Assembly (NCBI GenBank): GCA_944323075.1
Contig: CALURC010000016.1
Coordinates: 711,446-775,445 of the forward strand
DNA from: an uncultured Alistipes sp.
GTDB taxonomy: Bacteria; Bacteroidota; Bacteroidia; Bacteroidales; Rikenellaceae
DNA length: 64,000 nt
Direction of reading: 5' to 3'
Positions 3,050-19,583 of the stretch are shown in pieces. Below the pieces are notes generated by a model. That model saw nothing but the letters and a program-made list of their open reading frames with translations. It was not told the origin of the DNA and made no database searches. Position 1 is the first letter of the stretch. The number at the start of each line of letters is the position of its first letter. A program made the translations under genes and the position numbers.

Positions 3050-3066
3050 AAACTTATTCGTTCAAT

Positions 3067-3918: not shown

Positions 3919-4889
3919 TACCTTACATCATAATTAAGTAACCCAAAATCCCACTTATCAAAATCGAGCATATCTTTATGAATTTCATCATCTTTTATTA
4001 GCAAATCACAAGTTAAAGGTAATGATTTCGGTTCAAAGTTTTGTGGAATACAAAGGAAAAGTGTCTGGAATAATTTCAGCGGGCCCACATAGAGAATTAA
4101 ATCAACTTTATGTTCTTTTAAAATTGAAAATACGCCCTTATATAAGGATAAGAAACTCATCCTTTTTTTTTGCCTAGAATAAATCAAATATGCTGTCCTA
4201 ACGCCCTGTTCATCTACTATCCGAAAACAATTCATGCAATTTCTATGATGTATCTGCACATAATCATCATGTGAGAAACGGCCTTGGAGAAAGGATTCAT
4301 CATCTACTATCTCATACTGAAATTTTTTTTGGCTACTCCTACACAACGCACTAAGAACAAAAGATATACTCACAGCTATATATACGTATATCAAAGAACA
4401 CACATTGAGTAACTTACTTTTACGCATAATATTACCCACTCGGACTGGCATTCCCCAATATTTAATCATTCCAACATCTTGCCATTTTACAACATTCTTC
4501 CAATATGAATAAGCTGTTTCATTAGGTACCGCCATTACTGACACAATCCTTTTCTCAATCAATAGTGTCGTTAATCTTTTATACATTCTTCGAAGCGTAA
4601 AAGGATCGCTCCGATAATCTTCCAATATAAAAACATCTGCAGCCAAGCCTATTTTTATCAACTCATCTTCATTGTGTCTATACCAATATGGAATAACAGA
4701 TATATTCCCCACAACCTTATCTTCATGCAATAACAATGCATGATACGATTGCCTGTCGCAAACAGAAAGATATTTATTATTAAAATAATCCTTTGTGAAT
4801 CCTTTATGAAATATGGCTTCGAAACTTGAGACAAAACTTTCCCATTCACAATAGGACCATTCTTGTGTACTACAAATTTTTATTTCCAT
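3918..4889 (-). CDS. GNAT/FemAB-like acyltransferase
   Basis: GNAT-like segment KIGLAADVFILEDYR and MAVPNETAYSYW. Stop overlaps the deacetylase start (TAATG). Confidence 0.6.
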   Translation of the reverse strand: MEIKICSTQEWSYCEWESFVSSFEAIFHKGFTKDYFNNKYLSVCDRQSYHALLLHEDKVVGNISVIPYWYRHNEDELIKIGLAADVFILEDYRSDPFTLRRMYKRLTTLLIEKRIVSVMAVPNETAYSYWKNVVKWQDVGMIKYWGMPVRVGNIMRKSKLLNVCSLIYVYIAVSISFVLSALCRSSQKKFQYEIVDDESFLQGRFSHDDYVQIHHRNCMNCFRIVDEQGVRTAYLIYSRQKKRMSFLSLYKGVFSILKEHKVDLILYVGPLKLFQTLFLCIPQNFEPKSLPLTCDLLIKDDEIHKDMLDFDKWDFGLLNYDVR

Positions 4890-4891
4890 CT

Positions 4892-5620
4892 TTAAATCGT
4901 ACCTGAATCCACATATACATTCTGGCCTGTAATAGACCTTGAAAGATCCGATAACAAAAATCTAATTGTCGCTGCAACTGACTTCGTCGTTGTAGGGGTT
5001 TTCATAGATGTTCGTTTGTATATTCTATTTTTCTGATCCTCTGTCAAAGTTGCACTCATATCCGTCTCCATAAAACCTGCGACCAATATATTTGAACGAA
5101 TACCTTTTTCTCCCCATTCTCTAGCTGTATTTTTTGAAAATGCTTCTAATGCTCCTTTACTAGACGCATACATAGCCAAACCCTTATACCCCGTATGTAC
5201 ACTTATGGATGAGACATGCACTATACTCCCTTTTACTTGATGCAATAAAAAATGACGAATGACATATTTCGTCACAAACATCGGAGTAAAAACGTTTACT
5301 TTATACATATCTAACAAAGGTTCATAATTCAAGTTCGTTACAATATCATCATAAGCGACTGCTGCATTATTTACAAAACCATGTATTGGTGTTTGAATTC
5401 CAATGAAGTCTTTAAAAATTCTTGCACGTACATGATCCACATCATTTAAATCATACGACATCCATTTTAACCGAAATGGATACTGATCCATCAAATTTAC
5501 CAATCCTTGACTTTTAGATCGACTTATTCCATACACAACCGTATCCTCTTCTTCTAATATAGATTTTACAATCTCTAGTCCCAAACCTCTTGAAACACCC
5601 GTTATCAATATATTTCTCAT
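4892..5620 (-). CDS. SDR oxidoreductase, FabG-like
   Basis: TGVSRGLG, NNAAV, catalytic YASSK, GFMETDM. Confidence 0.9.
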   Translation of the reverse strand: MRNILITGVSRGLGLEIVKSILEEEDTVVYGISRSKSQGLVNLMDQYPFRLKWMSYDLNDVDHVRARIFKDFIGIQTPIHGFVNNAAVAYDDIVTNLNYEPLLDMYKVNVFTPMFVTKYVIRHFLLHQVKGSIVHVSSISVHTGYKGLAMYASSKGALEAFSKNTAREWGEKGIRSNILVAGFMETDMSATLTEDQKNRIYKRTSMKTPTTTKSVAATIRFLLSDLSRSITGQNVYVDSGTI

Positions 5621-6861
5621 AATCTATCCCTCGTAATTTTTCCAGTTCTGGTCACCTCTAATTTATCTACAAATTTAATAATTCTCGGAATTTTAAACTC
5701 CTGTAATCTTTGAGACAAATACAACCTAATATCTTTCTCTTTTAATAATACTGATTCCGATACTATATTACAACATATGATGTTACCTAATATGCTGTTT
5801 CTTTTCGCATAAACCACTACATCACTTACTCCTGGATAGCTTCTTATCATATCTTCGACTTCATGCGGATTTACTTTATATCCTCCAACATTAATCATTT
5901 CATTTTTCCGCGATATAAACTTAAATGTAAATGGACATTCCGAAACAACTGAAATTAAATCACCGGTCGGATACCAATCTCCCTGAAGTTTTATACTGTC
6001 AGAAAACCCCACTAAATCCCGATGAATATAGAGTTCACTACCAACTATCTTAAAAAGATTCTCCATTCCCTGTTTTATTTGGAACACATCTCCTTTCGCC
6101 GCAAATAATGTTCCTGCTTCCGTTGATGCATAGACATTTATCAACTTTGCATTTGGGAAAGCTGTCAACAAATTGTACTGTGTTCTGGCATCAAATTTTT
6201 CTCCACCAGACGTCAACCGCACAACACTACCATAAGATTTTTCAACAGGCAAAAGAAGCCTATAAAAAGTCGGAGTAGCAGAAATATTAGTAATACCATA
6301 CTCCTCAATTAATGTATATATCTCTTCTCTTGAGTATGAAAATATTCGGATAATCGTATTACAATTCAATAATGCCTGAAAAAAAACTTGTAGGCCAGCC
6401 ATATGGGTTGGATTATATGCAAACCCCCATATATCATTGATATGGTTTCCCGATTTTTTAACTTGTCGGGTTATTGATGCGAATGTATGGGAAATCCGTT
6501 TGGGCAAACCCGTTGTCCCTGATGTAAACAATGTTATTCTCCAATTATGTAGTTGTGTTCCCTTCAATATTCGTTCTAAATCAAAGGAATAATTGGATAA
6601 ATCAATCTTTTCTTCCGAACGTTCAATCAAAGAACTATCTTCAATCAATTTTTCCACCTCTGATATGGAAAAATCTGAATCCAATAATATAATTTCTTTA
6701 TCAAGAATTAAAGATAATACTATTCGTTTGAAGATTTCATAATAGGAATGTTCGAAGCAATATTTGTTATAAGAACGTGACTGCTTTATATCCGAATATA
6801 AATCCTCATATGATTTGTAGATGTTTTCTCTCTTATCTACAAAGAAAAGCTTTTGCACCAT
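5617..6861 (-). CDS. ANL-family adenylating enzyme (acyl-ACP/CoA ligase), short N-terminus
   Basis: FTSGTTGLPK AMP-binding loop, YASTEAG, TGDL, GGYKVNPHEVE, FKIP C-terminal motif. Confidence 0.9.
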   Translation of the reverse strand: MVQKLFFVDKRENIYKSYEDLYSDIKQSRSYNKYCFEHSYYEIFKRIVLSLILDKEIILLDSDFSISEVEKLIEDSSLIERSEEKIDLSNYSFDLERILKGTQLHNWRITLFTSGTTGLPKRISHTFASITRQVKKSGNHINDIWGFAYNPTHMAGLQVFFQALLNCNTIIRIFSYSREEIYTLIEEYGITNISATPTFYRLLLPVEKSYGSVVRLTSGGEKFDARTQYNLLTAFPNAKLINVYASTEAGTLFAAKGDVFQIKQGMENLFKIVGSELYIHRDLVGFSDSIKLQGDWYPTGDLISVVSECPFTFKFISRKNEMINVGGYKVNPHEVEDMIRSYPGVSDVVVYAKRNSILGNIICCNIVSESVLLKEKDIRLYLSQRLQEFKIPRIIKFVDKLEVTRTGKITRDRL

Positions 6862-7079
6862 TACATGATTTTTTTTGTTATATCTCCAATAGTCATAACC
6901 ACCCCATCTTCAAATATATCAACATCATATTCTGCTTCAATCCTTACTGTCAATTCTGCCAAATCCAAAGAATCAAACCCCAAATCATTTCTCAAATTTG
7001 TATCCGGATTGATATCATCCACAATGTTTTTACCACGATTTTCCAAAATCGTATTGACAATCTGTAACAAGCGCTCCAT
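6861..7079 (-). CDS. Acyl carrier protein
   Basis: 72 aa acidic protein with the GFDSLDLAEL phosphopantetheine motif. Confidence 0.9.
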   Translation of the reverse strand: MERLLQIVNTILENRGKNIVDDINPDTNLRNDLGFDSLDLAELTVRIEAEYDVDIFEDGVVMTIGDITKKIM

Positions 7080-7085
7080 AATCTT

Positions 7086-7784
7086 TTAATATTTATTTAA
7101 GTACAAATTAATCCAAAATGGCAATGCCTTAATGTAGCGTTTAATTTTATACGGCTGTTTGAATAGTCTATAAGCTCCTTCTAAGTTATGATCAATCCAC
7201 CATTGCGGAGCCCGTTTTACATGTCCTGTATACACATCAAAGCTTCCTCCTAACCCCTGGTATATAGCATTATGCCTACGTTGCATCTCCTCCATAAGAA
7301 GCTCTTGTTTCGGTGACCCCATTGCAACAAATATCACATCTGGTTTCTTCTTTTCAACATCCTCAATTAATTTCAACCTCTCCTCGTTCGTTCTAATATA
7401 ACCATCTCTATAACCAACTATTCGAATGCCTTTAAACTCTTGTCTCAATTTAGATACAGTTTCATTAATAACCTCCGGCCTAGCGCCTACCAAATAAAAG
7501 CTTTTCTTTTTGTGGTAAGCATCTACTATTTTCAGCCACAATTCACAACCTGGTATTTTACATGAATCTTTATATCCTTTTTTTCTTAGAGCCAACATCG
7601 CTCCGACTCCGTCACAATATCCGATATTTCTATTAATGATAGCTCTTGTCTGATCGGTTGCATGCAGAATCTTATCTGCATTTATTGCAACAAGAATACC
7701 CTTATGAACATCTATATATTTCAACAACTGTTGTGCTGAATTATAAGGATACACTTTTACTCCATTTAGTGATACCGCCTCCAT
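7086..7784 (-). CDS. WecG/TagA/CpsF-family glycosyltransferase (probable ManNAcA transferase)
   Basis: YCDGVG, KIPGCEL, GYRDGY, VAMGSPKQE, GLGGSFDV, RAPQW. ATG at 7784 preferred over the GTG at 7823. Confidence 0.9.
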   Translation of the reverse strand: MEAVSLNGVKVYPYNSAQQLLKYIDVHKGILVAINADKILHATDQTRAIINRNIGYCDGVGAMLALRKKGYKDSCKIPGCELWLKIVDAYHKKKSFYLVGARPEVINETVSKLRQEFKGIRIVGYRDGYIRTNEERLKLIEDVEKKKPDVIFVAMGSPKQELLMEEMQRRHNAIYQGLGGSFDVYTGHVKRAPQWWIDHNLEGAYRLFKQPYKIKRYIKALPFWINLYLNKY

Positions 7785-8173
7785 ATTTATCAAATGTTCG
7801 CCTCTTCTTTTTATAATACTCACAACTATTCTAATTTGTATATCCCTTTTCAGTTTTTATAACTCAACGATTACTTTTGTTCAAAAAATCTCCTTTACTC
7901 CAACTATCGAGACAAATACCATTATACAATGATACAAATATACATACTAATTTCATCTTGTTGGTTCCATGGCCAGCTTAGGTCCACACTCGTGTATCCA
8001 AACAATAAATATCTACCCATTTTTATACTATCAATACTTTATCCCTTATTTTAAATACTATACCACACAAAATTCACAGCATTCTCCCAATATACAATAA
8101 TAAATAGAACAATCAGAGCATCTACAAATAAATAATTATTTTTACGCACTCCTTTTTTTATTCAAAATATTCA

Positions 8174-8599
8174 TCACTCAACTAAATGACCATATTTACC
8201 AGTATGGATACCCACTCGAATTACTCGAGCTGGATTTCCTGCGACAATACAATTTGAAGGAACGGACTTAGTTACAACACTCCCTGCTCCAACCACAACT
8301 TCATTCCCAATCCGTACACCACACATAATAATTGCATTAACCCCAATAAAACAGTTATCTCCAATATATGTGTTTGTATGTATATGTCTAGCAAAATCAT
8401 GACTAAAAATAACGGCACCAGAAGCGATGTATGAACTTTTCCCAATATGAATTCCTCTTGGATTTGTTTTATCTAGCCTCGCCCCCAAAGAGATCCTTGC
8501 TGTACGCTCAATATCCATGTGATAGATTCTTCTATAAAACAAATGACAGAAGAAAAGTACTAACAAACGAATGGATTCACGAGCTTTAACAATAATCAT
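8174..8599 (-). CDS. Hexapeptide-repeat (LbH) O-acyltransferase
   Basis: IGDNCFIGVNAIIMCGVRIGNEVVVGAGSVVTKSVPSNCIVAGNPARVIR. Confidence 0.9.
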   Translation of the reverse strand: MIIVKARESIRLLVLFFCHLFYRRIYHMDIERTARISLGARLDKTNPRGIHIGKSSYIASGAVIFSHDFARHIHTNTYIGDNCFIGVNAIIMCGVRIGNEVVVGAGSVVTKSVPSNCIVAGNPARVIRVGIHTGKYGHLVE

Positions 8600-8743
8600 A
8601 ATTTAAAGAATTTGACAGATTGTATTAATATTTACATTCAAAAAAACTAAAAATCATTTTATTAATCAACCACTATCACCACATTAACACCTTAAACAAA
8701 TTCACTTTACAACCCCGATTATTCTTATAACACCAATTTTATA

Positions 8744-9823
8744 TTATAATGTTCGTAAATAATCATATAATTTATCCATAATATAATCTGTATCATATTT
8801 TAAAGATGATTTCCTTGCATTACCCGAAATAATATTTTTTTCACTATCTGTAAGATTATAATAACAATCTATCCTATCAATCAGACTAGAGATATCCCCT
8901 GTACTAAAAAAAAGACCATTTTTCCTATCCTCAATATAATCGGTAGGTCCATGAGAATCACTTGCTATAACAGGAATACCACAGGCCATTGCTTCAAGTC
9001 CGACCAGACCTAAAGATTCCTCTTTCCGAGTAGAAGGAAATATAAAACAATCCATCTGAGAAAATATAGAAGGAAGTTTATCATGTGGAATAGGTCCTAT
9101 ATAATCAACAATATTACTAAGATCCAATTGAGAAATCAGCTCTAACATCTCCTTGGTTTCTCCCCCTCTTCCTGCAATAATACCTCTAATATTTCCATAT
9201 CTTTGTCTCATATTATTTACTGCATTAAGAAATAAATCCCATCCTTTACCTTTATCTATTCTTGACACAAAACCCAGAACAAACATCTCTCGATCTTTTC
9301 GATTATTTAAAGGAGAAAACAAAGTTGTATTAACTCCTCCAGATGGAGAAACAAATATTTTTCCCGCAGGATAATCTGGCAAGAACTTAATTATTTCTTT
9401 TTTAAAATAATTTGAAGGAGAAACTATGGATATAGCCTGATTCAATATAGGTTTTGACAGTTTGCGAAGATACGACGCCTTTCCTCCTCCTAACAAATCT
9501 GCACCGTGTGTATTGAAAACCAATGGAAGTTTTTTAAAAATCGATACAAATTTTATCGGAATAATAGGATAAGTAATAGTATGAACATATATTAAATCAT
9601 ATCGGAAAAACAATAACACAAACAGACTCCTAAAATAAAAAATAAAATATTTATACACTTTCCCTATAACATTTTTACTTCTACCTTTAATAGCGATTAA
9701 TTCTGTTTTCCCTGATCGATTCTTCTTTACAATTGAATCCATAAACTCTTTAACAAAAGTTCCATAAACAGGATCTTTTGTTGAAGGATACATATTAGAG
9801 ATTACAAGTATCTTCATTATCAT
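8744..9823 (-). CDS. Glycosyltransferase family 4
   Basis: EESLGLVGLEAMACGIPVIAS (EX7E), FVSRIDKGKG. Confidence 0.92.
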   Translation of the reverse strand: MIMKILVISNMYPSTKDPVYGTFVKEFMDSIVKKNRSGKTELIAIKGRSKNVIGKVYKYFIFYFRSLFVLLFFRYDLIYVHTITYPIIPIKFVSIFKKLPLVFNTHGADLLGGGKASYLRKLSKPILNQAISIVSPSNYFKKEIIKFLPDYPAGKIFVSPSGGVNTTLFSPLNNRKDREMFVLGFVSRIDKGKGWDLFLNAVNNMRQRYGNIRGIIAGRGGETKEMLELISQLDLSNIVDYIGPIPHDKLPSIFSQMDCFIFPSTRKEESLGLVGLEAMACGIPVIASDSHGPTDYIEDRKNGLFFSTGDISSLIDRIDCYYNLTDSEKNIISGNARKSSLKYDTDYIMDKLYDYLRTL

Positions 9824-9830
9824 CTAAATA

Positions 9831-11000
9831 TTAAATTAATATCGGTAAATTTTTCCCAAAACAAAACTGATAACGAATACAATCTGTATGATTACCAGCA
9901 TCAGCATATATTTGTACGAGAAGATGCATTACAAATAAAAGAACAAACACAGCCCCCACCAAATCACCATTCTTTGTTTTATGTATTTTAAACAAATAGA
10001 AAAGAAAAAAAGAACCAACAATCACTCTAAATATATGAAAATAAGCAGTTACACGACTAAGCACCAAACTACTCATAAATAAAGGTTCAATAACAAAAAA
10101 AATAACATACATAATATATACAAAGCCAAATTTTTTTGACGGAAATACACTGTGTAATTTTTTTGACGAGAATATCAAACAAATATCAACAATAAGCATA
10201 AGGATCCTCCTTACTCCAAAATTCATTTCACGTCCTTCAAGACTATTTAAAGTATTTGCATCAAACCGATCATATCCAATAGCAGCGGAAATAATATCTA
10301 CATACTTTAATAAATATTCCCATATGGACATTTGAGACAAAAATAAGGCTGCAAAAAATAGGGACAATTGAAGCCAACGTGGAATAAAGAATTTTTCTAG
10401 ATTAAAAAAATACAACAAACAGAATGGCAGCAAAAACACAGCACTTGTATGTATAAATGATAATAATAATATCATACATATATACAATAGCACTCTACGT
10501 CTTTCTATTGTTAAAGAAACTACAAATAAGAAAGCTGTACATACCAAAGCTTGTCTCATTCCGTTCATCCAAAAGAAATAATCTCCGCCACACATTATCA
10601 AAACCAACAAATATGGTAAGATATATAATTCTTTACGAAATGAATTTACACAAAAGAATAATTGCATAAAGGCGACAAGTCCAAAATATATCGTAAAATG
10701 AGCACCTAATTCAGCCAAAAAAAGTTGCAAGTACACATACCCAATCTCCATATCCTCCCTATCGAGACTACCATACTTACATATTGATGAATAATCTTCG
10801 AGATAACTTAAATGATCTATACCGACATCCCATCTAACAGCGGAAAAAAAAGTAAACACTATTACCCCAATCCATATACTCCAATTATATAACGGGGTAA
10901 CATTGGCTGTAATTCTATTATTAATTGACAACACTCGTATTTGAAAGGTCTGATATAGTGTGACAATCATAAAACCATACACCAAGATGCTTTGTAACAT
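9831..11000 (-). CDS. EpsG-family O-antigen/capsule polymerase (Wzy)
   Basis: Multi-TM protein with RWDVGIDHLSY, MRQAL, HTSAVF motifs. Confidence 0.85.
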   Translation of the reverse strand: MLQSILVYGFMIVTLYQTFQIRVLSINNRITANVTPLYNWSIWIGVIVFTFFSAVRWDVGIDHLSYLEDYSSICKYGSLDREDMEIGYVYLQLFLAELGAHFTIYFGLVAFMQLFFCVNSFRKELYILPYLLVLIMCGGDYFFWMNGMRQALVCTAFLFVVSLTIERRRVLLYICMILLLSFIHTSAVFLLPFCLLYFFNLEKFFIPRWLQLSLFFAALFLSQMSIWEYLLKYVDIISAAIGYDRFDANTLNSLEGREMNFGVRRILMLIVDICLIFSSKKLHSVFPSKKFGFVYIMYVIFFVIEPLFMSSLVLSRVTAYFHIFRVIVGSFFLFYLFKIHKTKNGDLVGAVFVLLFVMHLLVQIYADAGNHTDCIRYQFCFGKNLPILI

Positions 11001-11004
11001 AGCC

Positions 11005-11973
11005 TCATTTCTTAATCTTATAATACAGAATACGCAACAATCTATAGATTTTATACTTAATATATATCACACTTGGTATTATAAAAAAAATCTCGCTATC
11101 AAAATTAGACATTTTACTCAAAGAATTGATTCTTTTGATTGTCTTTTGAGCGACATATGTAAAACTCTTATCTCGTTCATCACACATTGAATACATCATA
11201 AAAAAACTATCTACGAACAAGTTATACATATATTTAATCACACTATGCCGCACATTGATATTATTAATATTAATATATTCAATTATATTTTGAAATGCTA
11301 ACAAATCATCAATACAATGCTCTAACGAGCGTTTTGTATTCGTAGCTGAATTTTCGTTATATGTATATATATAACAAATATTATTCACTAGTTGTATATT
11401 ACTTTTTGTATGAAGTAGAACCTGTATTATAAATTGACGATCTTCTGAATACTTCAGGTTTTCATTGAAACGGATACTACCGACTAATGATTTCGCAAAA
11501 AAATATGAAACAGAACATGAACTGAAATATTCTTTTGTAAAAAATCGTTCAAGCGGAACTAATTTCGGCTGTTTAAATTCAAAGCAATTATATAGGCTTT
11601 TATCCGAAGTTTCTTTTTTAAACCCAAAATGAATAACCTCTGTACCTTGCTCCACAAAATTTAATGTCGCTAAATATCCATTTTCTATATAATCATCAGA
11701 GTCTACAAATGCAATCCATTCACCCCAAGCATTATCAAGACCAACGTTCCGAGCTGAGCTTACACCTCCATTCTTCTTATGAAATACTCTAATACGGCTA
11801 TCTTTTCTAGCATATCCGTCACAGATTTCTCCACTTTTATCTGGACTTCCATCATCTATCAAAAGAAGTTCAAAATCTTTGAATGTCTGAGCCAAAATGC
11901 TATCTACGCAGCGACATAGATACGCCTCAGCTTTATAAACAGGAACTATTACTGATATTTTTGGATTCAACAT
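11005..11973 (-). CDS. Glycosyltransferase family 2
   Basis: ISVIVPVYK, IDDGSPD, NGGVSSARNVG, FVDSDD. Confidence 0.95.
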   Translation of the reverse strand: MLNPKISVIVPVYKAEAYLCRCVDSILAQTFKDFELLLIDDGSPDKSGEICDGYARKDSRIRVFHKKNGGVSSARNVGLDNAWGEWIAFVDSDDYIENGYLATLNFVEQGTEVIHFGFKKETSDKSLYNCFEFKQPKLVPLERFFTKEYFSSCSVSYFFAKSLVGSIRFNENLKYSEDRQFIIQVLLHTKSNIQLVNNICYIYTYNENSATNTKRSLEHCIDDLLAFQNIIEYININNINVRHSVIKYMYNLFVDSFFMMYSMCDERDKSFTYVAQKTIKRINSLSKMSNFDSEIFFIIPSVIYIKYKIYRLLRILYYKIKK

Positions 11974-13093
11974 AATTATTCAACGCATTACTTAAAAAAT
12001 CATATGCTTTTTCTTTTGCTACTTTTCTACTTAAATTTATTCTTTCATAATCAATAGACGCTGTCACTAAAACATCAAGATCATCTTTGCTATCCGAAAA
12101 AATAAGCCTATTCTCCAGATTAAACATTTTCAATAAAGATGTAAAGCGGCTTAATCCTCTTTTTTGGTTGGCAATAGCAATAAATGGTTTGTTGAATATT
12201 ATCGAAAACACGGTCCCATGAAAAGAGTCTGTTATAATAAAATCAGCATCTTCAAAACCTTTCAACCATTCTGTAACAGATGGGAAAATACACTTTTTTA
12301 GTCCTTTCGATCCGACCTCTCTAAATTTACATTCTGGCATAACAGAGAAAGGCAGCAAATTCAACTTTGACGAAACATATTGCACAATCTGCTGTTTTTC
12401 AAAAGTCGTATCCAGAATATATATCATCAACTTCCCCTTATGTTTTTTTTCGTGCTCCTTACGAACTATCTTTAAATAATCTTCCTTATCAAGAAGCATT
12501 GTCGGATCAAGTAAATGTACAGAATTAACGCCTAAATAATCCTTACATAATATCACTCCAGAATCTTCCCTTACAGAAATTGCATCAAACATTTGAACCA
12601 ATCTAGAACATTCTCGTGTATCTTTCGGGGAGAACTCCCACTCATCTGTGCCAAATGATGCTGCATAAGCTAACCGTTTCACATCTTTTCCTTCCGTGAA
12701 ATCAAGAAAATAGTTCCTCAATCCATACGAATAACGGGGGCGCCACACTTGATCACTTCCTACAATATACGCTTCAAATCCATATTTTTCCAACACAATT
12801 TTTTGTTGTGAAAACACCGGCTCTGTTGTCGTAATATATTTCTTTATAAAAGAATCTGTATATTGTGATATTACTTTTCGTTCTTTTGAGTTTGGATAAT
12901 AAATATGACGTATTGGCCCCAGAACAATCTTTGTAAAATATTTTACATTCTGAAAAAGACTTTTCTTATTCTCTTTACGGTCTTCAGTCCACACCTCGTG
13001 GCCCATTCGTTTCAAAACAGTTTGCAAAGCATAAGCTTGAAGCAAGCCTCCATAATTATGACCTAGAGGTTGGGTCAATATACAAATCCGCAT
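11933..13093 (-). CDS. Polysaccharide pyruvyltransferase-family protein
   Basis: NYGGLLQAYAL, VGSDQVW, YAASFG, ISVRE, DPTML, TDSFHG. The 3' end overlaps the GT2 start by 41 nt. Confidence 0.9.
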   Translation of the reverse strand: MRICILTQPLGHNYGGLLQAYALQTVLKRMGHEVWTEDRKENKKSLFQNVKYFTKIVLGPIRHIYYPNSKERKVISQYTDSFIKKYITTTEPVFSQQKIVLEKYGFEAYIVGSDQVWRPRYSYGLRNYFLDFTEGKDVKRLAYAASFGTDEWEFSPKDTRECSRLVQMFDAISVREDSGVILCKDYLGVNSVHLLDPTMLLDKEDYLKIVRKEHEKKHKGKLMIYILDTTFEKQQIVQYVSSKLNLLPFSVMPECKFREVGSKGLKKCIFPSVTEWLKGFEDADFIITDSFHGTVFSIIFNKPFIAIANQKRGLSRFTSLLKMFNLENRLIFSDSKDDLDVLVTASIDYERINLSRKVAKEKAYDFLSNALNNYVESKNISNSSCL

Positions 13094-13101
13094 AACGATA
13101 C

Positions 13102-14847
13102 TTAATGGCTTTTCAATATCTTTTTGACAATCTTTTTTCCTGTTTCTCCCAATGCAGCTTTTGCCGTCTTCTTGAGTACTGAAACAACAGAATAATTTAT
13201 ATTATTCATTATTTTAATGGCTTCACTCTCATCATTGCTGTCAGTAAATACTTCGAAAATCATCGGACGATCTGTCAATTTCAACTCGACAAACCGATCT
13301 AACCCATGTAAATACTCATCTTTTGTACTCGCGGTCAAATATTCGAATCCCAAATCTTCTGCATAATGTTTAACTAAAGTAGGTGATTGATTTCCAAAAT
13401 GGCCGGCTGCTGCAATAAAACGATCTGCGTCATTCCCAAATGCAGCACCAGGATGCATATAATTCCGAAATTCGGTTCCCCTTCCATTGTTTACTAACAG
13501 AATTCGAACATTTCTTCCCACATGACGATTAGCAAGAACATTCATATCATAAAAGAATGCTAAATCTCCTACCACCCCAAAATAAAGACGATCAGAATGC
13601 GCCAATGATGCTCCAATAAGAGCAGAAACGCATCCATCTATTCCAAAACCTCCTGTATCGGAATAGCCATAAACATCATTCGGTATCTCAAAATAATTCC
13701 AACTTCGTAACGTATTAAGAATTCCTAAATGTAAAACGCTACCATGAGGCAAACGATGTGCGGTTTGAGATGCAATCCAAACATTCGAAAAGGGAAGCGA
13801 ATCGGGTATTTTTGCACGAATAGACAGTAACTCATCATTACACATCTTCCAATATGAATCTCTCGGCTCAGTAGATGGATCAATATAATGTTCAAAAAAA
13901 ACAGATTCTGACATCTCGAACACATAAGTTAGCTTCCGATATGTATCTCTTAACTCGCCATCAAGACTAACACGCCATACTGCATGTGGCCGCATTGAAA
14001 TATACCCTCCGGAAACCTCTCCTATATGAATCAACAGATCTATATCCAACAAGGAAGACATTGCTTTTTCTTGTGAAGACAAAATCGGAACAAGAACTTT
14101 ATATTTACCATTGTAACCACTCGTATGATCACACAAAACCACTGCATCATATGTCGCACAGAAATTATCCAGCAAGGAGGTATCACTCTTTGAAAATTTG
14201 ACGTGTGATCCTATAAAAATCGCAACTCTACCTTGCGGTATTTGAGGAAATTCGTCTTGAAGACACACCCTTTTTATCAACCGAGCTATAGGCAATTCTT
14301 TAACCGAATAATCCCTGCTATACGTCGTAGCCAGATTCAAATGTACAGGCCCCCCTCCCCTATGGCGCAATTCAAGCAGGGCTCGATTAATTTTTACAGT
14401 ATTACTCCATTCATCATTCTCATCTCGCGTCACAGGAACATATTCACTTAATAACGCTATATCATTCTGTATTGAACTACGGTCTATCACTTGAGGAATA
14501 TAATGCCCGACTTTACTTACATCCTGTGTACTAGTCACTGCCAGTACCGGCAATTTGCGATAGAAAGCTTCTGTCAATCCCGAAACATAATTTCGAGACG
14601 CCGTAGCCCCAGTACATGTCAGGACCACAGGCTCTCCGGATTCCGCAGCCAAACCACACGCCAAATATGCAGCACTACGCTCATCGACACTGGAATACAT
14701 TTCGAAAAAACCATCCTGCTGTAAACTTGCTACAAACGACAAATTTGTCGTTCCTGGCGATGCAATTATCTTCTTTATATTATATTGTTTAAGCAATGAG
14801 ATTAGCAATTGCACACTACGCTCATTAGTATAATATTTTCCTTCCAT
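13102..14847 (-). CDS. MenD-like thiamine-diphosphate-dependent enzyme (polysaccharide-locus type)
   Basis: SPGTTN, VDERSAAYLACGLA, TCTGATA, GGPVHLN, GFGIDG, ThDP motif GDLAFFYD...NN. Confidence 0.85.
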   Translation of the reverse strand: MEGKYYTNERSVQLLISLLKQYNIKKIIASPGTTNLSFVASLQQDGFFEMYSSVDERSAAYLACGLAAESGEPVVLTCTGATASRNYVSGLTEAFYRKLPVLAVTSTQDVSKVGHYIPQVIDRSSIQNDIALLSEYVPVTRDENDEWSNTVKINRALLELRHRGGGPVHLNLATTYSRDYSVKELPIARLIKRVCLQDEFPQIPQGRVAIFIGSHVKFSKSDTSLLDNFCATYDAVVLCDHTSGYNGKYKVLVPILSSQEKAMSSLLDIDLLIHIGEVSGGYISMRPHAVWRVSLDGELRDTYRKLTYVFEMSESVFFEHYIDPSTEPRDSYWKMCNDELLSIRAKIPDSLPFSNVWIASQTAHRLPHGSVLHLGILNTLRSWNYFEIPNDVYGYSDTGGFGIDGCVSALIGASLAHSDRLYFGVVGDLAFFYDMNVLANRHVGRNVRILLVNNGRGTEFRNYMHPGAAFGNDADRFIAAAGHFGNQSPTLVKHYAEDLGFEYLTASTKDEYLHGLDRFVELKLTDRPMIFEVFTDSNDESEAIKIMNNINYSVVSVLKKTAKAALGETGKKIVKKILKSH

Positions 14848-14858
14848 ATGTATTTATC

Positions 14859-15740
14859 TCAGAATGAATAATCCATATCTTCATATGTAATAAGCCCTGC
14901 ACCTCCTGTCATATAAACGATATCCCCAACAATAGTTTTCCCCATAGTACTTGTCAAAATCACAGCCATATTCGCAATCTCTTCAGGCAATGCATAACGT
15001 CCTATCGGATTTCCATTGTTCGTTATATTCTCCGTATCATCTCCCAACAACATTGGTGTAGCCGTTGGACCGGGTGCAAGTCCATTTACTGTAATTCCAT
15101 AAGGAGATAATGCCTTTGCCAACCCCAGAGTCAAACCACGTATTCCCCACTTAGACAATGTATAAGCAGAAATAGCCGGACGTAATGCAGAAGATGAAGC
15201 AATATTAAGAATATTTCCTTCAACATGGTTATCTTTCATATATCTTCCGACCAATTGAGATAAGAAGAAAGCTCCTTTTAAATTAGTATTTATAACCTTG
15301 TCAAAATCTTTTTCTTGTGCATTAGAAATATTTGCGCCTAAAATCCCCGCATTATTCACTAGAATATCAATACAATCCCGTTTCGCCGACTTCACTAAAT
15401 TTAGAGCCTGTTCAAAACAATTTTTAAATGAAGAAACAGAAGTGTTATCCATGGCAACACCAAACACCCGATTATCATACACGTGATCTTCATTCAGTCT
15501 ATCACACGTTTGTTGCACTTTTACATTATCTCTACCTGTAATAATAACTGTTGCTCCGCTCCGTAAAAACGCTTGAGCTATACAATACCCTATTCCACTA
15601 GTTCCTCCTGTTATAAATGCCGTACGATCTTTTAAAAGTTCATTTGGCGCAAGATTCACAATCTGTATCTTGAATTTTTTCGCAGGAATACTATTAAGAG
15701 TAAACTTAATCGCGGATTTGATTTTACTTTTAAATGACAT
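14859..15740 (-). CDS. SDR oxidoreductase
   Basis: TGGTSGIG, VNNAG, NIASS, YTLSK, PGPTATPM. Confidence 0.9.
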   Translation of the reverse strand: MSFKSKIKSAIKFTLNSIPAKKFKIQIVNLAPNELLKDRTAFITGGTSGIGYCIAQAFLRSGATVIITGRDNVKVQQTCDRLNEDHVYDNRVFGVAMDNTSVSSFKNCFEQALNLVKSAKRDCIDILVNNAGILGANISNAQEKDFDKVINTNLKGAFFLSQLVGRYMKDNHVEGNILNIASSSALRPAISAYTLSKWGIRGLTLGLAKALSPYGITVNGLAPGPTATPMLLGDDTENITNNGNPIGRYALPEEIANMAVILTSTMGKTIVGDIVYMTGGAGLITYEDMDYSF

Positions 15741-15767
15741 CTTTCAAGAATTTGGACTCCATATTTA

Positions 15768-17300
15768 TCAATTACGAGATATAACAGGTTTCAATACCTT
15801 TTTTAACGGTTCTACAAAAAGATTCCGCTCGTATTCATTCATTGAAAAAAACCATATACATGGCAAATAAACAACACAAAACAGCATTGCGACCATAATA
15901 AAATTTCTCATTCGCGACATATCTATATCAGTCAACGAAAGCAATAATCCACACAAAACACACAACAAAATAGGAGCAATACTCATTTTGCTAATTTCAA
16001 GCCAAAATAGTTTAATATCGATATGCTGTTTTTTCTGATAATATACATTCATAATAACATGCTGCACAATAATAGCAAACGATGTGGCTGCAGCACAACC
16101 GACTCCTCCCCATATCATCGCAGCAGGAATAGACAGAAATAAACTTCCCACCGACACCACCAAATATAATACTGACCGAAATTTCATCTCATTCCGTGCC
16201 ATAAGAATCGTTATACCCATATTTTGAATCAAAGCCACTAACGTAACAACAAAAAACATCAACGAAATTACGTATGTATCTTCATATCCTTCGCCTGCCC
16301 AAAATCGAATAAACTGACGACCAAATAGGATAAATGCACTTAATATGAACGCCATGATAATATATTGAATGCGCCCTATTTTAACAAAAAGATCCGATAT
16401 CTCCTTGTCAGACTTTTGTTTAGTAACCAATGTCGTAACACGAGGTAAGAAAACGCCTGTAATCGCTGATGAAAACGCCATATACATATGTTCCAATTGA
16501 ACAGCTAAAGCATATACTGCCACTGCCGTCGTTCCCACCACAGCACCCAAAACGAACTGTCCCGTACTCCAATATACACGATCCATTATCACATTTAGAA
16601 ATATCCATATCGAATAAACCGTCACTTCTTTTAAAAAATCCCATTTAAAACGTCTAAAACGAAGTTTTACATCAAGTTTCCGATAGCAATAAATACAATT
16701 TATAATAAGCGTCGCAACATTGAATAGCGTCGTAACTACAACCAAAGCTATTACTTTATAACCCATTAATAACAGTACAATCATCACTAATGGATTAAGT
16801 ATTGTCCGAACTATATTGACTAATTTCTGAAATACAAAATTTTCATAAGCTGTAATTATAGACCCCCAAATACTCATGGGGAACGTAAACGCCAAATTAA
16901 AAGCCATTAAAATGAGAATAATTCTCATTTTCAGAACTTCGTCCTCAGTCATTTTCGCTGAAAAAATAGCATCTGTATTGAATGCTAACACCATAGCAAG
17001 TATAAATGCAATTAGACTTATACCCAAATACAACAGAAAGAACATTCCGAACATCTCGTATTGTTCTTCTTTTCGATCTTCGGCCCGAAATTTAGCTGTA
17101 TAACGTATAATTGCATTTCCAAACCCTAAATCAAGTACAGTCAAATAAGCAATTACTGATGCAGCCAACGAATAAAGCCCATATTCAGACTGCCCTAACA
17201 TTCTAAGCAAAAACGGTGTATATAACAGCCCGATCAAAGTATTTAAACCGATCAGTACATACGATAAAACTGTTCCTGCTTTCAATTGATTAATTGCCAT
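15768..17300 (-). CDS. Wzx-type oligosaccharide flippase
   Basis: 510 aa multi-TM protein; LGQSEYGLYSL, LDLGFGNAIIRY. Confidence 0.9.
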   Translation of the reverse strand: MAINQLKAGTVLSYVLIGLNTLIGLLYTPFLLRMLGQSEYGLYSLAASVIAYLTVLDLGFGNAIIRYTAKFRAEDRKEEQYEMFGMFFLLYLGISLIAFILAMVLAFNTDAIFSAKMTEDEVLKMRIILILMAFNLAFTFPMSIWGSIITAYENFVFQKLVNIVRTILNPLVMIVLLLMGYKVIALVVVTTLFNVATLIINCIYCYRKLDVKLRFRRFKWDFLKEVTVYSIWIFLNVIMDRVYWSTGQFVLGAVVGTTAVAVYALAVQLEHMYMAFSSAITGVFLPRVTTLVTKQKSDKEISDLFVKIGRIQYIIMAFILSAFILFGRQFIRFWAGEGYEDTYVISLMFFVVTLVALIQNMGITILMARNEMKFRSVLYLVVSVGSLFLSIPAAMIWGGVGCAAATSFAIIVQHVIMNVYYQKKQHIDIKLFWLEISKMSIAPILLCVLCGLLLSLTDIDMSRMRNFIMVAMLFCVVYLPCIWFFSMNEYERNLFVEPLKKVLKPVISRN

Positions 17301-17367
17301 TATATTTCGAATTTTATATCAGTCGACCGAACATTTCTTCGAAATGCAATTTTTTTTTACAAAAAAC

Positions 17368-18360
17368 TCATCTGAATCCCAAATATTTTACAGAAACCAA
17401 TGGCATCATTTTTTTTACAATTAATATTCCTATAGACGTAATTACAATAACGCAAAGCCACTTAACACCCCATGACAATTCTACAGGTATAACATGTGAT
17501 ATAAAAATGATTACATAACAATGGATTAAATATATTCCGTACGAAATTCCGCCAATTTTTTGAAAAATTTGTAAGCATCTTGATTTTCGTTCATACCAAA
17601 GCTCTAATCGTTTAGAAAACAACAGAACTATGACTGCTGCCGAATATGGTAAAAATGAAATTTTGTTACCGTAACCCACACCATGGAAGCCTATCAAAAA
17701 TTTTGTTTCCAGATATTCCAACAACAATCCTATAATACAAAAGAACACGGGCCATACAAGACTATAATTCCGGTCCTTTTGCCCTAAATACATACCTAAT
17801 ATAAAATAAAAACACAATAATGGGAAAGGACCTGCATATACAGTCAATGGAATTGGATAGTTTTTAATCGCTAAAAGATATGTCGTCAATACGGCCGAAA
17901 CTAAAGAAATGACCAATGAGATTATCAACATATGCGATATATTACGTCTTTTTAAATAAGGTAAAAAAATATATAATTGAATAATTAATATAACAAAATA
18001 ATAAACACTGAAACCACAAAGAAACAATCTCACCACATTCGTAATAAGATTTTGCTCTTGATTAATCAACGCAAATAGAAATAATGGTAACGACCAAATA
18101 AAACAAGGTATATATATTGCAGGTATCTGTTTCTTCCAAAAAACTATTCTATCACTGTTGACATCAAACTGTTTCTGGCCTAAAAAAAAACCAGAGATTG
18201 CAAGAAATAAAGGGACTGCACAATTAATCATTTGACGAATTACAATCTCCATATTTCCACTTATACTGCCGAATGTACTTTGGGGAAAAGTATGTATTCC
18301 AACAACCATAAGCACTGCTACCCCCCTTAAAAAATCAAAATATGTTATCCTTTTTGTCAT
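17368..18360 (-). CDS. Acyltransferase-3 (OafA-like) membrane acyltransferase
   Basis: DFLRGVAVLMVVGIH, AVPLFLAISGF, SYGIYLIH. Confidence 0.88.
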   Translation of the reverse strand: MTKRITYFDFLRGVAVLMVVGIHTFPQSTFGSISGNMEIVIRQMINCAVPLFLAISGFFLGQKQFDVNSDRIVFWKKQIPAIYIPCFIWSLPLFLFALINQEQNLITNVVRLFLCGFSVYYFVILIIQLYIFLPYLKRRNISHMLIISLVISLVSAVLTTYLLAIKNYPIPLTVYAGPFPLLCFYFILGMYLGQKDRNYSLVWPVFFCIIGLLLEYLETKFLIGFHGVGYGNKISFLPYSAAVIVLLFSKRLELWYERKSRCLQIFQKIGGISYGIYLIHCYVIIFISHVIPVELSWGVKWLCVIVITSIGILIVKKMMPLVSVKYLGFR

Positions 18361-18368
18361 TTTTTATT

Positions 18369-19583
18369 TTACTGAACAACGTCTTTATAAATACCGCAAA
18401 AATCCAAAATTACTTTGCTTTCATCCAACGGCAATGTCTTAAAAGGATCATGTGCGACAAGGAAAACTACAATATCAGCTCGACTGTATGCCTCTTGATA
18501 ATCAGTTAATTTAAACACCTGATGTTCTTTAATATTTGGCTCCACGATTAAAATATCCGCATTGTTACAACCTTGCATCACTTTAGACACAATATATTTG
18601 GCAGGGCTTTCCCGCAAATCATCTATATTTGGTTTAAATGCCAATCCCATCATTGCCACTTTCGGTTTACGATGAGTCTTCAACTCAAACTGCAACATCG
18701 CATTCTTCACCTTTTCCACACACCAGAATGATTTGTAATTATTTATTCCTCTTGATGTTGCAATCAATTTTGATTCTGCAGGAAAATCCGCTGTAATAAA
18801 ATATGGATCGACCGCTATACAATGTCCTCCGACACCACATCCCGGTTGCAGTATATTTACACGTGGATGCTTGTTTGCAAGTCGAATAAGTTCCCAGACG
18901 TTTATACCTGCTTTATCACAAATAATAGAAAGTTCATTTGCAAAGGCAATCTGCACATCTCGACTCGAGTTCTCCGTCAATTTGCACATTTCTGCCGTAC
19001 GTGCATTGGTTTTATGTAATGTACCCTGCACAAACTGCGAATAAAATTCAATAGCCTTATCCGTAGACTCAGAGTTTATTCCTCCAATCACGCGATCATT
19101 ATGTACAAGTTCATAAATGACATTTCCCGGCAAGACTCGCTCTGGACAATAAGCAATATAGAGCTTATCTTTCAATTCTGGACGCTCTGCATAAATAATT
19201 TCGGTCATTGCCTCTGTTGTTCCGACCGGAGATGTAGACTCTATAACAAACAGATCTCCGGGCTTCAAATACGGTATTACTGAACGAGTTGCTGCTTCCA
19301 CATATGAAACATCAGGTTCATGATCGCCTTTAAATGGCGTCGGTACTACTATAAAATAAGCATCACTTTCTTCCGGTGTGGTTTTTGCATACAACATTCC
19401 GTTTTGCACAACCTCGCGCAACAGATCTTCCATGCCTGGCTCAATAATATGCAATTCCCCGGCATTTGTTTTTGCAACAACCTGCTCATTTATATCGACT
19501 CCTACAATCTGAATTCCATGTTTGGCGGCAATAATAGATGTGGGTAATCCGATGTACCCCAACCCCATAAAACAAGCTTTCAT
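18369..19583 (-). CDS. wecC: UDP-N-acetyl-D-mannosamine dehydrogenase
   Basis: GLGYIGLP, ESTSPVG, YCPERVLPG, KLTENSSRD, GVGGHCI, FKPNIDDLRESP. Confidence 0.96.
   Translation of the reverse strand: MKACFMGLGYIGLPTSIIAAKHGIQIVGVDINEQVVAKTNAGELHIIEPGMEDLLREVVQNGMLYAKTTPEESDAYFIVVPTPFKGDHEPDVSYVEAATRSVIPYLKPGDLFVIESTSPVGTTEAMTEIIYAERPELKDKLYIAYCPERVLPGNVIYELVHNDRVIGGINSESTDKAIEFYSQFVQGTLHKTNARTAEMCKLTENSSRDVQIAFANELSIICDKAGINVWELIRLANKHPRVNILQPGCGVGGHCIAVDPYFITADFPAESKLIATSRGINNYKSFWCVEKVKNAMLQFELKTHRKPKVAMMGLAFKPNIDDLRESPAKYIVSKVMQGCNNADILIVEPNIKEHQVFKLTDYQEAYSRADIVVFLVAHDPFKTLPLDESKVILDFCGIYKDVVQ

Follow-up and report, generated by a model that had tools for sequence, protein, structure and literature searches.

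A conserved cassette with a MenD-like ThDP enzyme, a ketoreductase and a PF04230 transferase in an Alistipes capsule locus, and its possible role in building an acidic side group

The capsule island and its three-gene core

The window, a stretch of 64,000 nucleotides from the genome of an uncultured Alistipes sp., contains a co-directional polysaccharide locus at about 1877-19583. This capsule island is characterized by a GC content of 30–39%, compared with ∼50% in the flanks, and is of the Wzx/Wzy type. The genes typed by Pfam/NCBIfam include a UDP-sugar dehydrogenase, Acyl_transf_3, Wzx, GT2, an EpsG-like polymerase, GT4, WecG and WecB. The initial annotation had described a triad of adjoining genes lying inside a polysaccharide locus; the gene typing and the open reading frame coordinates agree with both points. 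The triad and the genes on either side of it are as follows.

15768-17300, minus strand: Wzx-type flippase, 510 aa, immediately upstream of the triad (Pfam Polysacc_synt, E 5e-19)
14859-15740, minus strand: classical SDR, P0002, 293 aa (Pfam adh_short, E 5e-45)
13102-14847, minus strand: MenD-like ThDP enzyme, P0001, 581 aa (Pfam TPP_enzyme_N/C; NCBIfam menD TIGR00173, 138.4 bits)
11933-13093, minus strand: PF04230 pyruvyltransferase-family enzyme (PT), P0003, 386 aa (PS_pyruv_trans, E 3e-34)
11005-11973, minus strand: GT2 glycosyltransferase, 322 aa (Glycos_transf_2, E 6e-32)

The SDR and ThDP genes are separated by 11 nt (14848-14858) and the ThDP and PF04230 genes by 8 nt (13094-13101), whereas the GT2 gene overlaps the end of the PT gene by 41 nt. 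This GT2 may add the sugar that is decorated.

P0002 displays the SDR motifs TGGTSGIG (44-51), NNAG and YTLSK, as read from the sequence, and in NCBIfam and the PDB it comes closest to FabG-like ketoreductases, in every case under the equivalog cut-off; it is presumed to be the NADPH ketoreductase of the cassette. P0003 scores 119.6 bits for PS_pyruv_trans against a gathering cut-off of 25.3. The AF2 model (pLDDT 92.5) adopts a GT-B-like fold with two Rossmann domains and aligns with yeast Pvg1p (5ax7) with a TM score of 0.51 by query length and 0.58 by target length. This structural placement comes from fold comparison only, as a PDB sequence search with P0003 matched no chain.

The ThDP enzyme compared with MenD

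By every comparison made, P0001 falls closest to MenD (SEPHCHC synthase; PDB 2X7J, 5EJ4, 9E9B). The best NCBIfam match is menD, at a score of 138.4 bits that lies below the cut-off of 244.2; the best matches in a PDB sequence search are MenD; and the AF2 model (pLDDT 88.4) has the three-domain fold of MenD, the top 50 Foldseek matches in the PDB all being MenD. Acetolactate synthase (ALS) models, by comparison, match the N-terminal domain only (residues about 12-136, at most 44 bits), and P0001 is 20% identical to IlvB of the same genome.

The catalytic apparatus that binds ThDP and Mg is shared with MenD. Glu55, Gln118, Arg395, Ile418, Asp442, Asn469 and Phe475 (Escherichia coli, Ec, numbering) are kept in the P0001 clade, and P0001 itself harbours E56, the GDLAFFYD...NNG signature (GDL...NN in MenD), I403 and F460. 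The substrate pocket has diverged. In MenD four basic substrate residues are strictly conserved (R32, R106, R409 and R428 in Bs, equivalent to R33, R107, R395 and R413 in Ec): R33 and R107 serve isochorismate, R413 and S391 the distal carboxylate of 2-oxoglutarate, and R395 contacts both substrates (PMC2914249). In the alignment of 76 P0001 homologues, R33 is replaced by Thr in 71 and R107 by Gln in 59; R413 has become Val or Thr in all 76 and S391 has become Leu. R395 is retained in 75. The position of I474 is occupied by an invariant Glu, and further invariant residues particular to the family include R85, D122, R123 and E459. A basic amphipathic C-terminal tail of 26 aa, with a charge of +6, is absent from canonical MenD. 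The P0001 clade is monophyletic and stands apart from canonical MenD in the tree.

The retention of the ThDP/Mg residues and R395, together with the changes at R413, S391, R33 and R107 and the Glu in place of I474, would suit a donor that is small and uncharged and a Michael acceptor with a single carboxylate. Read from the lost residues, the donor would most likely be pyruvate.

A role as the MenD of menaquinone synthesis is rejected on the basis of the score below cut-off, the loss of R33, R107 and R413, and the genomic setting. The whole 2.5-Mb genome (95.8% complete) yields no MenB match and no isochorismate synthase (MenF) above cut-off. The only other TIGR00173 match in the genome is IlvB, located beside IlvD and IlvN, and the ANL ligase of the locus reaches 99.5 bits against a menE cut-off of 330. 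The initial annotation had set P0001 apart from canonical MenD and had seen no other men genes in the window; the first point is borne out, and the second extends to the whole genome for MenB, isochorismate synthase and a second MenD. Other genomes contain a canonical MenD (370–406 bits) plus the cassette paralogue (145–173 bits). In databases the ThDP gene is labelled 'MenD' or 'thiamine pyrophosphate-binding protein', and the former label can falsely imply a capacity for menaquinone synthesis. A phosphonate pathway, based on PEP mutase and phosphonopyruvate decarboxylase, was also considered and rejected: the locus has no PEP mutase, and that decarboxylase belongs to another, shorter ThDP family.

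Distribution of the cassette and its partners

The surroundings of P0001 homologues were surveyed in 54 species-representative loci with flanks of 4 kb or more to either side of the ThDP gene. A PF04230 gene is found within 4 kb in 50 of these and within 10 kb in 52. The 4-kb surroundings include a flippase in 47 loci and a GT2 of cluster c2 in 22, the latter usually straight after the PT gene. Wzx cluster c3 occupies position -2 in 45 of 83 loci, and in 31 loci a member of SDR cluster c4, the one to which P0002 belongs, is immediately upstream of the ThDP gene. Bacteroidota typically show the order Wzx-SDR-ThDP-PT-GT2 and Firmicutes the order PT-Wzx-ThDP-SDR; the latter arrangement is also present in the one match from a plasmid collection, the annotated megaplasmid of Ruminococcus albus 7. 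As the arrangement recurs in dozens of unrelated genomes, the adjacency of the triad goes far beyond chance. The link to PT is not absolute, since 2–4 of the 54 loci have no PT within reach of the ThDP gene and, in an independent sample of the order, at least one and possibly two of the four Bacteroidales genomes with a ThDP gene also have none.

The cassette is widespread, with relatives in at least 154 species representatives, and is present in Bacteroidota, Bacillota, Verrucomicrobiota, Pseudomonadota, Spirochaetota, Synergistota and Chloroflexota. The P0001 clade is tightly conserved, identity averaging about 61% across at least eight phyla. A protein search with P0001 returned at least 8000 clusters (90% identity) at E ≤ 0.001, a set that probably also includes canonical MenD and other ThDP relatives; the best 120 matches are 67–100% identical. 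Cassette hosts include gut commensals as well as Vibrio, Aeromonas, Photobacterium and Shewanella, and the best 120 matches of a gammaproteobacterial profile search comprise these four genera together with Pseudoalteromonas, Marinobacter and Halomonas. Providencia is not among these best 120, which does not imply that the genus lacks a homologue. A full-text literature search retrieved no publication on the cassette and no biochemical or structural datum on any member.

The reductase slot is filled in different ways. Among the 54 loci, 24 contain a classical SDR and 23 an extended SDR, whereas seven have no free-standing SDR nearby. One of these seven, locus L076, encodes a single protein of 916 aa in which the ThDP enzyme is fused to an aldo-keto reductase that carries a 4Fe-4S domain. 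As three unrelated reductase families occupy the partner slot, the natural reading is that a carboligation forms a ketone which is then reduced, in line with what the initial annotation had proposed, and the swappable reductases point to a generic reduction of the ketone from the ThDP step. The fusion and the recurrence of PF04230 in 50–52 of the 54 loci also substantiate its treatment of the triad as a functional unit. These patterns are best explained if the triad in Alistipes is a single copy of a glycan-tailoring cassette that moves horizontally and is composed of Wzx, a ketoreductase, the ThDP enzyme, a PF04230 enzyme and often a GT2.

Basic amphipathic appendages are a shared trait of the enzymes around the ThDP step. 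P0002 has an N-terminal extension of ∼35 aa of this kind; across 34 classical SDRs its median charge is +4.5 and its hydrophobic moment 0.58. The extended SDR partners bear theirs at the C-terminus, as does the ThDP enzyme. Judged from sequence, these appendages fit work on a lipid-linked substrate.

The relationship between the transferase and its partners is asymmetric. When PT homologues were sampled irrespective of the ThDP gene, the latter was present in only one of 18 Bacteroidales genomes. The ThDP-free PTs stand alone beside Wzx or next to an FrhB-like Fe-S flavoprotein, which is adjacent in six cases; four further, non-adjacent matches are only putative, the HMM having been built from two sequences and including a ferredoxin domain. 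In these Bacteroidales loci of Wzx, flavoprotein, PT and GT2, the flavoprotein sits where SDR and ThDP enzyme sit in the cassette, and FrhB-like genes occur in just two of 81 ThDP-anchored loci. The pairing of PT with GT2 and the adjacency of Wzx and PT are likewise found in ThDP-free loci. The ThDP/reductase pair depends on a PF04230 partner, and not vice versa. On this pattern, the PT product looks to be processed in alternative ways, by the ThDP/SDR pair in some loci and by the flavoprotein in others. Neither would be required for a finished ketal, and the context argues that the transferred group is processed further.

The PTs themselves do not form a specialized cassette clade, a possibility ruled out by homologues 51–59% identical that occur without a ThDP gene. 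Cassette PTs share their clade with PTs that stand alone and presumably make ordinary ketals, and their sequence gives no sign of stopping at an enol ether. Partner PTs average 29% identity and fall into at least three clusters. Such a contrast with the 61% of the ThDP enzyme would be expected were the PTs to recognize different sugars and the ThDP enzyme one and the same small group.

A possible route to a C5 acid ether and its alternatives

Like CsaB, WcaK, WcfO and Pvg1p, P0003 clearly belongs to PF04230; it has a GT-B-like fold and, as in ordinary pyruvylated capsules, lies beside Wzx and a glycosyltransferase. Known members make cyclic pyruvate ketals and need no partner, whereas P0003 comes with a ThDP enzyme and a reductase as partners, a link that is chemically sensible only if the group transferred remains a reactive enol ether. 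PEP-dependent (enol)pyruvyl transfer to a lipid-linked sugar is proposed for P0003. MenD and PigD are natural Stetterases. The former adds an acyl anion to an α,β-unsaturated carboxylate that bears an enolpyruvyl ether (PMC2914249). From the MenD descent of P0001, the kept R395 and a PF04230 partner able to supply an acrylate-type enol ether, we infer a Stetter 1,4-addition for P0001. The order of steps, the donor and the product set out below are likewise inferred.

In a first step, the PF04230 enzyme, at the cytoplasmic face of the membrane, would use PEP to furnish a hydroxyl of the undecaprenyl-PP-linked repeat unit with an enolpyruvyl ether, and would halt at that stage, leaving the usual pyruvate ketal unclosed. 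The MenD-like enzyme would then decarboxylate a small 2-oxoacid, most likely pyruvate, and the ThDP-bound acyl anion, probably acetyl, would attack the CH2= carbon of the acrylate-type acceptor by 1,4-addition, giving a 2-O-glycosyl-4-oxopentanoate. Thereafter the SDR would reduce the 4-keto group with NAD(P)H to yield a 2,4-dihydroxypentanoic acid 2-ether (+116 Da), a role that an extended SDR or the fused aldo-keto reductase would take elsewhere. Finally, the dedicated Wzx would flip the decorated unit. Ethers of this kind are known: 2,4-dihydroxypentanoic acid 2-ethers occur in the O-antigen that Providencia alcalifaciens O31 carries (PMC10609480).

The sequence of enolpyruvyl ether, Stetter-type acyl addition and reduction to a 2,4-dihydroxypentanoate-type ether, which the initial annotation had put forward in outline and which is partly supported, stands, in our estimation, at about an even chance of being correct. 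It fits the one-way dependence on PT, the remodelled MenD site, the unequal conservation of ThDP enzyme and PT, and a precedent in Klebsiella. Capsules K22 and K37 carry a lactyl ether, 4-O-[(S)-1-carboxyethyl]-GlcA (Parolis 1988), and, going by the annotation names in PMC4616057, the genes specific to these types encode WclZ, a 'pyruvyl transferase', together with a 'nitroreductase'. The obvious route to this lactyl ether would run through a PEP-derived enol ether and its reduction, and the functions ascribed to the Klebsiella and FrhB-like proteins are putative. In MurA/MurB logic, and presumably in the K22/K37 (and K66) loci with their 'pyruvyl transferase' and flavin reductase, an enolpyruvyl ether is formed and a second enzyme acts on its C=C bond, as proposed here; those systems would reduce the enol ether to a C3 lactyl group, whereas the cassette would form a C–C bond first and arrive at a C5 acid.

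A broader, tentative proposal, in which we place rather less confidence, is that PF04230 enzymes are a general source of enolpyruvyl ethers feeding two branches: a flavoprotein (FrhB-like or nitroreductase-like) that would lead to a lactyl (1-carboxyethyl) ether, and the MenD-derived Stetter enzyme with its ketoreductase that would lead to a 2,4-dihydroxypentanoic acid ether.

An alternative, also raised in the initial annotation as a branched-chain sugar, is a branched or chain-extended sugar: the acyl anion would undergo 1,2-addition to a sugar's keto or aldehyde group, the acyl branch would be turned into a hydroxyalkyl group by the reductase, and PT would ketalize the new diol or another residue. 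ThDP carboligase followed by ketoreductase is the recognized logic of yersiniose synthesis by YerE/YerF, also encoded in a surface-glycan cluster; enzymes of the MenD family are capable of 1,2-additions in vitro, and extended SDRs, which are of the sugar-nucleotide type, account for half of the partner reductases. YerE, however, is a flavoenzyme resembling acetolactate synthase whose substrate is a CDP-4-ketosugar, whereas P0001 is MenD-like in sequence and fold, meets ALS models solely in its N-terminal part, is linked to PF04230 and has no conserved gene for making a keto-sugar in its cassette. Classical SDR or aldo-keto reductase partners are ill-suited to sugar-nucleotide chemistry, and the membrane-type appendages favour a lipid-linked substrate over an NDP-sugar. 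The 93–96% linkage to PF04230 and the flavoprotein in the same slot elsewhere would be left unexplained. This pathway is unlikely and is rated below the enolpyruvyl/Stetter route.

More improbable still is that the ThDP enzyme and reductase produce a free small molecule, such as an acyloin, a diol or a hydroxy-acid, that another enzyme attaches or that serves PF04230 as an alternative donor or acceptor. One-way dependence would also arise if one enzyme supplies a special substrate to the other, acyltransferases (Acyl_transf_3, MBOAT) are common neighbours, and a few loci have the ThDP enzyme and reductase with no PT nearby. These acyltransferases are not conserved as PT is, though, and the cassette has no kinase or enolase for another enol-phosphate, while all characterized PF04230 enzymes use PEP (PMC6801904 and general knowledge). 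Basic amphipathic tails on enzymes of soluble type argue for an interfacial, lipid-linked substrate.

That the genes are unrelated neighbours, with PT making an ordinary ketal and the ThDP enzyme and SDR being passengers or part of general metabolism including menaquinone synthesis, is scarcely credible: the PT clade does function elsewhere without them and menD is the best family match, but gene order is kept across at least eight phyla, one fusion protein exists, score, lost arginines and missing MenB/MenF speak against a menaquinone role, and genomes with a true MenD hold the cassette gene as an extra paralogue.

Side groups of capsules and O-antigens determine how susceptible gut Bacteroidales and many other bacteria are to phages, how they are recognized by the immune system and how they compete for niches. 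It is probable that the cassette equips surface sugars with an unusual acidic side group. If the route proposed here is true, it would supply the missing biosynthetic pathway to C5 hydroxy-acid ethers, extend ThDP Stetter chemistry to glycans and provide a compact enzyme set for putting new acidic groups on polysaccharides. Should PF04230 enzymes indeed feed both branches, genes would be assigned to two long-known orphan polysaccharide decorations, and the cassette would provide the first Stetter reaction known to act on a glycan, along with a third family of natural Stetterases, active at the membrane and using lipid-linked substrates.

A glycan locus enclosing a MenD-like enzyme

The polysaccharide locus of the window is a co-directional run of minus-strand genes extending from ~19583 down to 1877, with a G+C content of 30–39% as against ~50% in both flanks. 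Fimbrillin-like genes neighbour the locus and, with the homologue matches, assign the organism to Bacteroidales.

Genes of the run, in order from the ~19583 side (families assigned with Pfam)
First in the run, minus strand: UDP-sugar dehydrogenase
Following the dehydrogenase, minus strand: Acyl_transf_3 O-acyltransferase
15768–17300, minus strand: Wzx flippase
14859–15740, minus strand: classical SDR (293 aa)
13102–14847, minus strand: MenD-like ThDP enzyme (P0001, 581 aa)
11933–13093, minus strand: PF04230 polysaccharide pyruvyltransferase-family protein, hereafter PT (P0003, 386 aa)
Following the PT gene, minus strand: GT2, then EpsG-like polymerase, then GT4
Following GT4, minus strand: hexapeptide acetyltransferase, then WecG/TagA-family transferase
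3067–7079, minus strand: second tailoring set of the locus, the ANL ligase/FabG/CE4 deacetylase set between the WecG-family gene and WecB (small ORF, possibly ACP; ANL ligase, 414 aa; FabG-like SDR, 242 aa; 323-aa protein without family match; CE4 deacetylase with DUF3473)
End of the run, minus strand: WecB

The SDR, ThDP and PT genes are separated by 11 and 8 nt, the gaps reported in the initial annotation. A set resembling the second one, of ACP/KR/KAS III type, comes after WecG in Parabacteroides distasonis (L001).

The ThDP enzyme is publicly annotated as 'MenD' or 'thiamine pyrophosphate-binding protein'. Among NCBIfam models it matches menD (TIGR00173) best, but its 138 bits fall short of the curated cut-off of 244; its top PDB sequence matches are MenD proteins (E ~5e-24, roughly 20% identity). 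An AlphaFold model built from a 50-sequence alignment (pLDDT 88.4) predicts the same fold, as MenD accounts for every one of its 50 best PDB fold matches. The initial annotation had noted that the window holds no other men genes, and for MenD, MenB and isochorismate synthase this extends to the whole genome (2.5 Mb, completeness 95.8%): MenB is absent, no isochorismate synthase scores above cut-off, and the only other TIGR00173 match is an IlvB adjoining IlvD and IlvN. The classical route to menaquinone is probably closed to the organism, which may take naphthoquinone precursors from outside like some oral and gut Bacteroidales. In two other genomes with such a locus, a canonical MenD (370–406 bits) coexists with the paralogue (145–173 bits).

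In a tree rooted on IlvB, all 81 of 81 ThDP proteins from such loci form one clade apart from canonical MenD. The active site was compared in an alignment of 76 proteins of the family, E. coli MenD and a pair of canonical MenDs from Bacteroidota. In E. coli numbering, the cofactor machinery is kept (Glu55, Gln118, Ile418, Asp442, Asn469 and Phe475), as is Arg395, which in MenD contacts both substrates (PMC2914249). Arg33 is replaced by Thr in 71 of the 76 proteins, Arg107 by Gln in 59 and Arg413 by Val or Thr in all; Ser391 becomes Leu, and the position of Ile474 is an invariant Glu. Invariant residues peculiar to the family, by its own numbering, include R85, D122, R123 and E459. Mutagenesis of B. 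subtilis MenD assigned recognition of isochorismate to Arg32 and Arg106, and that of 2-oxoglutarate to Arg428 (PMC2914249). Because it is the arginines with these roles that have changed, the determinants of both MenD substrates appear to be lost and catalysis retained: fold and cofactor residues are those of MenD, whereas the arginines for isochorismate and 2-oxoglutarate are replaced. A menaquinone role for the enzyme is effectively excluded by its score, its active-site residues and the lack of MenB or isochorismate synthase.

Spread and composition of the cassette

A protein search with P0001 returned at least 8000 clusters with E ≤ 0.001, a number that probably takes in canonical MenD and other ThDP relatives; the best 120 of these matches are 67–100% identical. 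At least 154 species-representative genomes carry a relative with 52–71% identity, in phyla that include Bacteroidota, Bacillota, Verrucomicrobiota, Pseudomonadota, Spirochaetota, Synergistota and Chloroflexota; a gammaproteobacterial profile search adds, among its 120 best matches, Vibrio, Aeromonas, Photobacterium, Shewanella, Pseudoalteromonas and Marinobacter. Of 300 Bacteroidales species sampled evenly, four carry the family, and it is absent from the two same-family relatives. This sparse occurrence and absence in relatives fit a mobile, strain-variable island.

ORFs were called and clustered in 80 loci, and counts were taken from the 54 in which the ThDP gene has 4 kb or more of sequence to either side. 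A PF04230 gene lies within 4 kb in 50 of these and within 10 kb in 52, and the PTs fall into three sequence clusters, each Pfam-confirmed. A same-strand SDR within 4 kb is found in 47 loci, either classical as in the window (24) or of the extended 'Epimerase' type (23); a flippase is likewise present in 47. The usual order of this cassette is Wzx-SDR-ThDP-PT-GT2 in Bacteroidota and PT-Wzx-ThDP-SDR in Firmicutes, among them the annotated R. albus 7 megaplasmid. A free-standing SDR is absent nearby in seven loci. One of the seven, from an Eubacteriales MAG (L076:8918–11668), encodes a 916-aa polypeptide that joins an aldo-keto reductase and a 4Fe-4S dicluster domain to the MenD-like ThDP enzyme, with PT and GT2 directly upstream. 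That three unrelated reductase families can fill one role, in one case as part of the ThDP protein itself, is an argument for a ketone as the product of the ThDP step, which the reductase would then reduce.

The PT is out of reach of the ThDP gene in two to four of the 54 loci. In one of the four sample genomes (G282; L123:4230–8752, at the locus edge), Wzx, a divergent extended SDR (408 aa, its gene sharing 100 nt with that of the flippase) and the ThDP gene occur as a minimal variant with no PT found nearby, and a P0003-like PT lies in another polysaccharide locus on a different contig (C1:47283–48377). In a second (G221), the absence of a PT is ambiguous, the contig being short. In Parabacteroides distasonis (L009/L001:9767–10459), the PT after the ThDP gene is only 230 aa long and is followed by IS66-family fragments; the cassette looks partly decayed in this lineage. 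A 400–450-aa protein lies between Wzx and SDR in some cassettes (L006:7716–9062, L014:276–1475; also L007, L044, L063 and L082), whether or not a PT is close by. It has no match in Pfam or NCBIfam, carries an SGGVD(A/S)-like PP-loop and C-terminal CxxC pairs, and may adenylate or amidate the new carboxylate.

The pyruvyltransferase and a proposed pathway

A complementary view comes from loci anchored on the PT, namely three database homologues (53–59% identical to P0003) and 18 genomes of Bacteroidales that encode a homologue of P0003. The ThDP/SDR pair is present in only one of this set. In about half, the PT follows Wzx with nothing between, and in six an FrhB/FdhB-like Fe-S flavoprotein of ~390–460 aa lies directly upstream of the PT (Wzx-FrhB-PT-GT2; L100:4755–5987, L102:4790–6004, L106, L108, L109 and L115, all Bacteroidales), in the place held by SDR and ThDP enzyme in the window. 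FrhB-like genes occur in only two of 81 ThDP-anchored loci, so that flavoprotein and ThDP/SDR pair are almost mutually exclusive. The dependence is one-way: the PT can do without the ThDP enzyme, and the ThDP enzyme is almost always accompanied by a PT. The simplest reading is therefore that the ThDP enzyme and SDR, or the flavoprotein, process what the PT installs. That product would be an enolpyruvyl ether, since a closed pyruvate ketal offers a ThDP enzyme or reductase nothing to act on. The FrhB-like flavoprotein is a candidate enolpyruvyl-ether reductase which, by a MurB-like logic, would make lactyl ethers. Cassette PTs do not form a clade separate from stand-alone PTs, and no feature that shows arrest at the enol ether was found in their sequences.

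A possible precedent is provided by Klebsiella capsules. The K22 and K37 capsules are reported to differ solely by an acetyl group, and the title of Parolis 1988 (cited in PMC3857182 and PMC7246685) gives K22 a 4-O-[(S)-1-carboxyethyl]-glucuronic acid, a lactyl ether. By the annotation names in the supplement of PMC4616057, only K22/K37 (AB819893/AB819894) carry a 'pyruvyl transferase' (WclZ), a 'nitroreductase' and a GT, and K66 uniquely has a pyruvyltransferase, WcqF, adjoining a 'coenzyme F420 hydrogenase'. Both arrangements, PT with nitroreductase (lactyl-GlcA) and PT with an F420-hydrogenase-like protein, look analogous to the Bacteroidales FrhB-PT loci. The K22/K37 pairing of genotype and structure, read through annotation names, supports processing of the PT product.

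We infer each step of the following mechanism. The PF04230 enzyme would use PEP to place an enolpyruvyl group on a hydroxyl of a sugar in the undecaprenyl-PP-linked repeat unit. The MenD-like enzyme would decarboxylate a small 2-oxoacid and add the resulting acyl anion to the terminal carbon of CH2=C(OR)COO-, a 1,4-addition of the Stetter type, similar to the one that MenD itself catalyses; the reductase would convert the 4-oxo group to a hydroxyl, and Wzx would flip the completed repeat unit. If pyruvate is the donor, the product would be the 2-ether of 2,4-dihydroxypentanoic acid, although the donor could be another small 2-oxoacid. This ether decorates the Providencia alcalifaciens O31 O-antigen (PMC10609480), and no description of its biosynthesis was found in the literature.

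In the alignment, the donor pocket lacks the residues holding the distal carboxylate of 2-oxoglutarate, and on the acceptor side one arginine out of three remains, so a mono-carboxylate acceptor would fit. Mean identity is 61% among the ThDP enzymes versus 29% among their partner PTs, a contrast that would follow if sugar recognition differed from PT to PT and the ThDP enzyme met a constant small group. The ThDP enzyme also carries a conserved C-terminal tail of 26 residues (net charge +6; a helix in the model) that is absent from canonical MenD; cassette classical SDRs have a basic amphipathic N-terminal extension of ~35 residues, and extended SDRs have basic hydrophobic C-termini. Such appendages would suit enzymes working at the membrane on lipid-linked substrates.

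The main alternative is a branched sugar made in the manner of YerE/YerF. It would also engage a ThDP enzyme and a reductase, but leaves unexplained the linkage to the PT, an ancestry in MenD rather than ALS, the exchange of one reductase family for another and the presence of a flavoprotein in the equivalent slot. The cassette is very probably a genuine functional unit with no part in menaquinone synthesis. That it processes the PEP-derived group has an even chance or slightly better, and the specific C5 hydroxy-acid ether can be proposed only tentatively as its product. No publication on the cassette was found. On this reading, a MenD-type ThDP enzyme and a PF04230 transferase, both of known kinds, would have been recruited into a new glycan-tailoring pathway.
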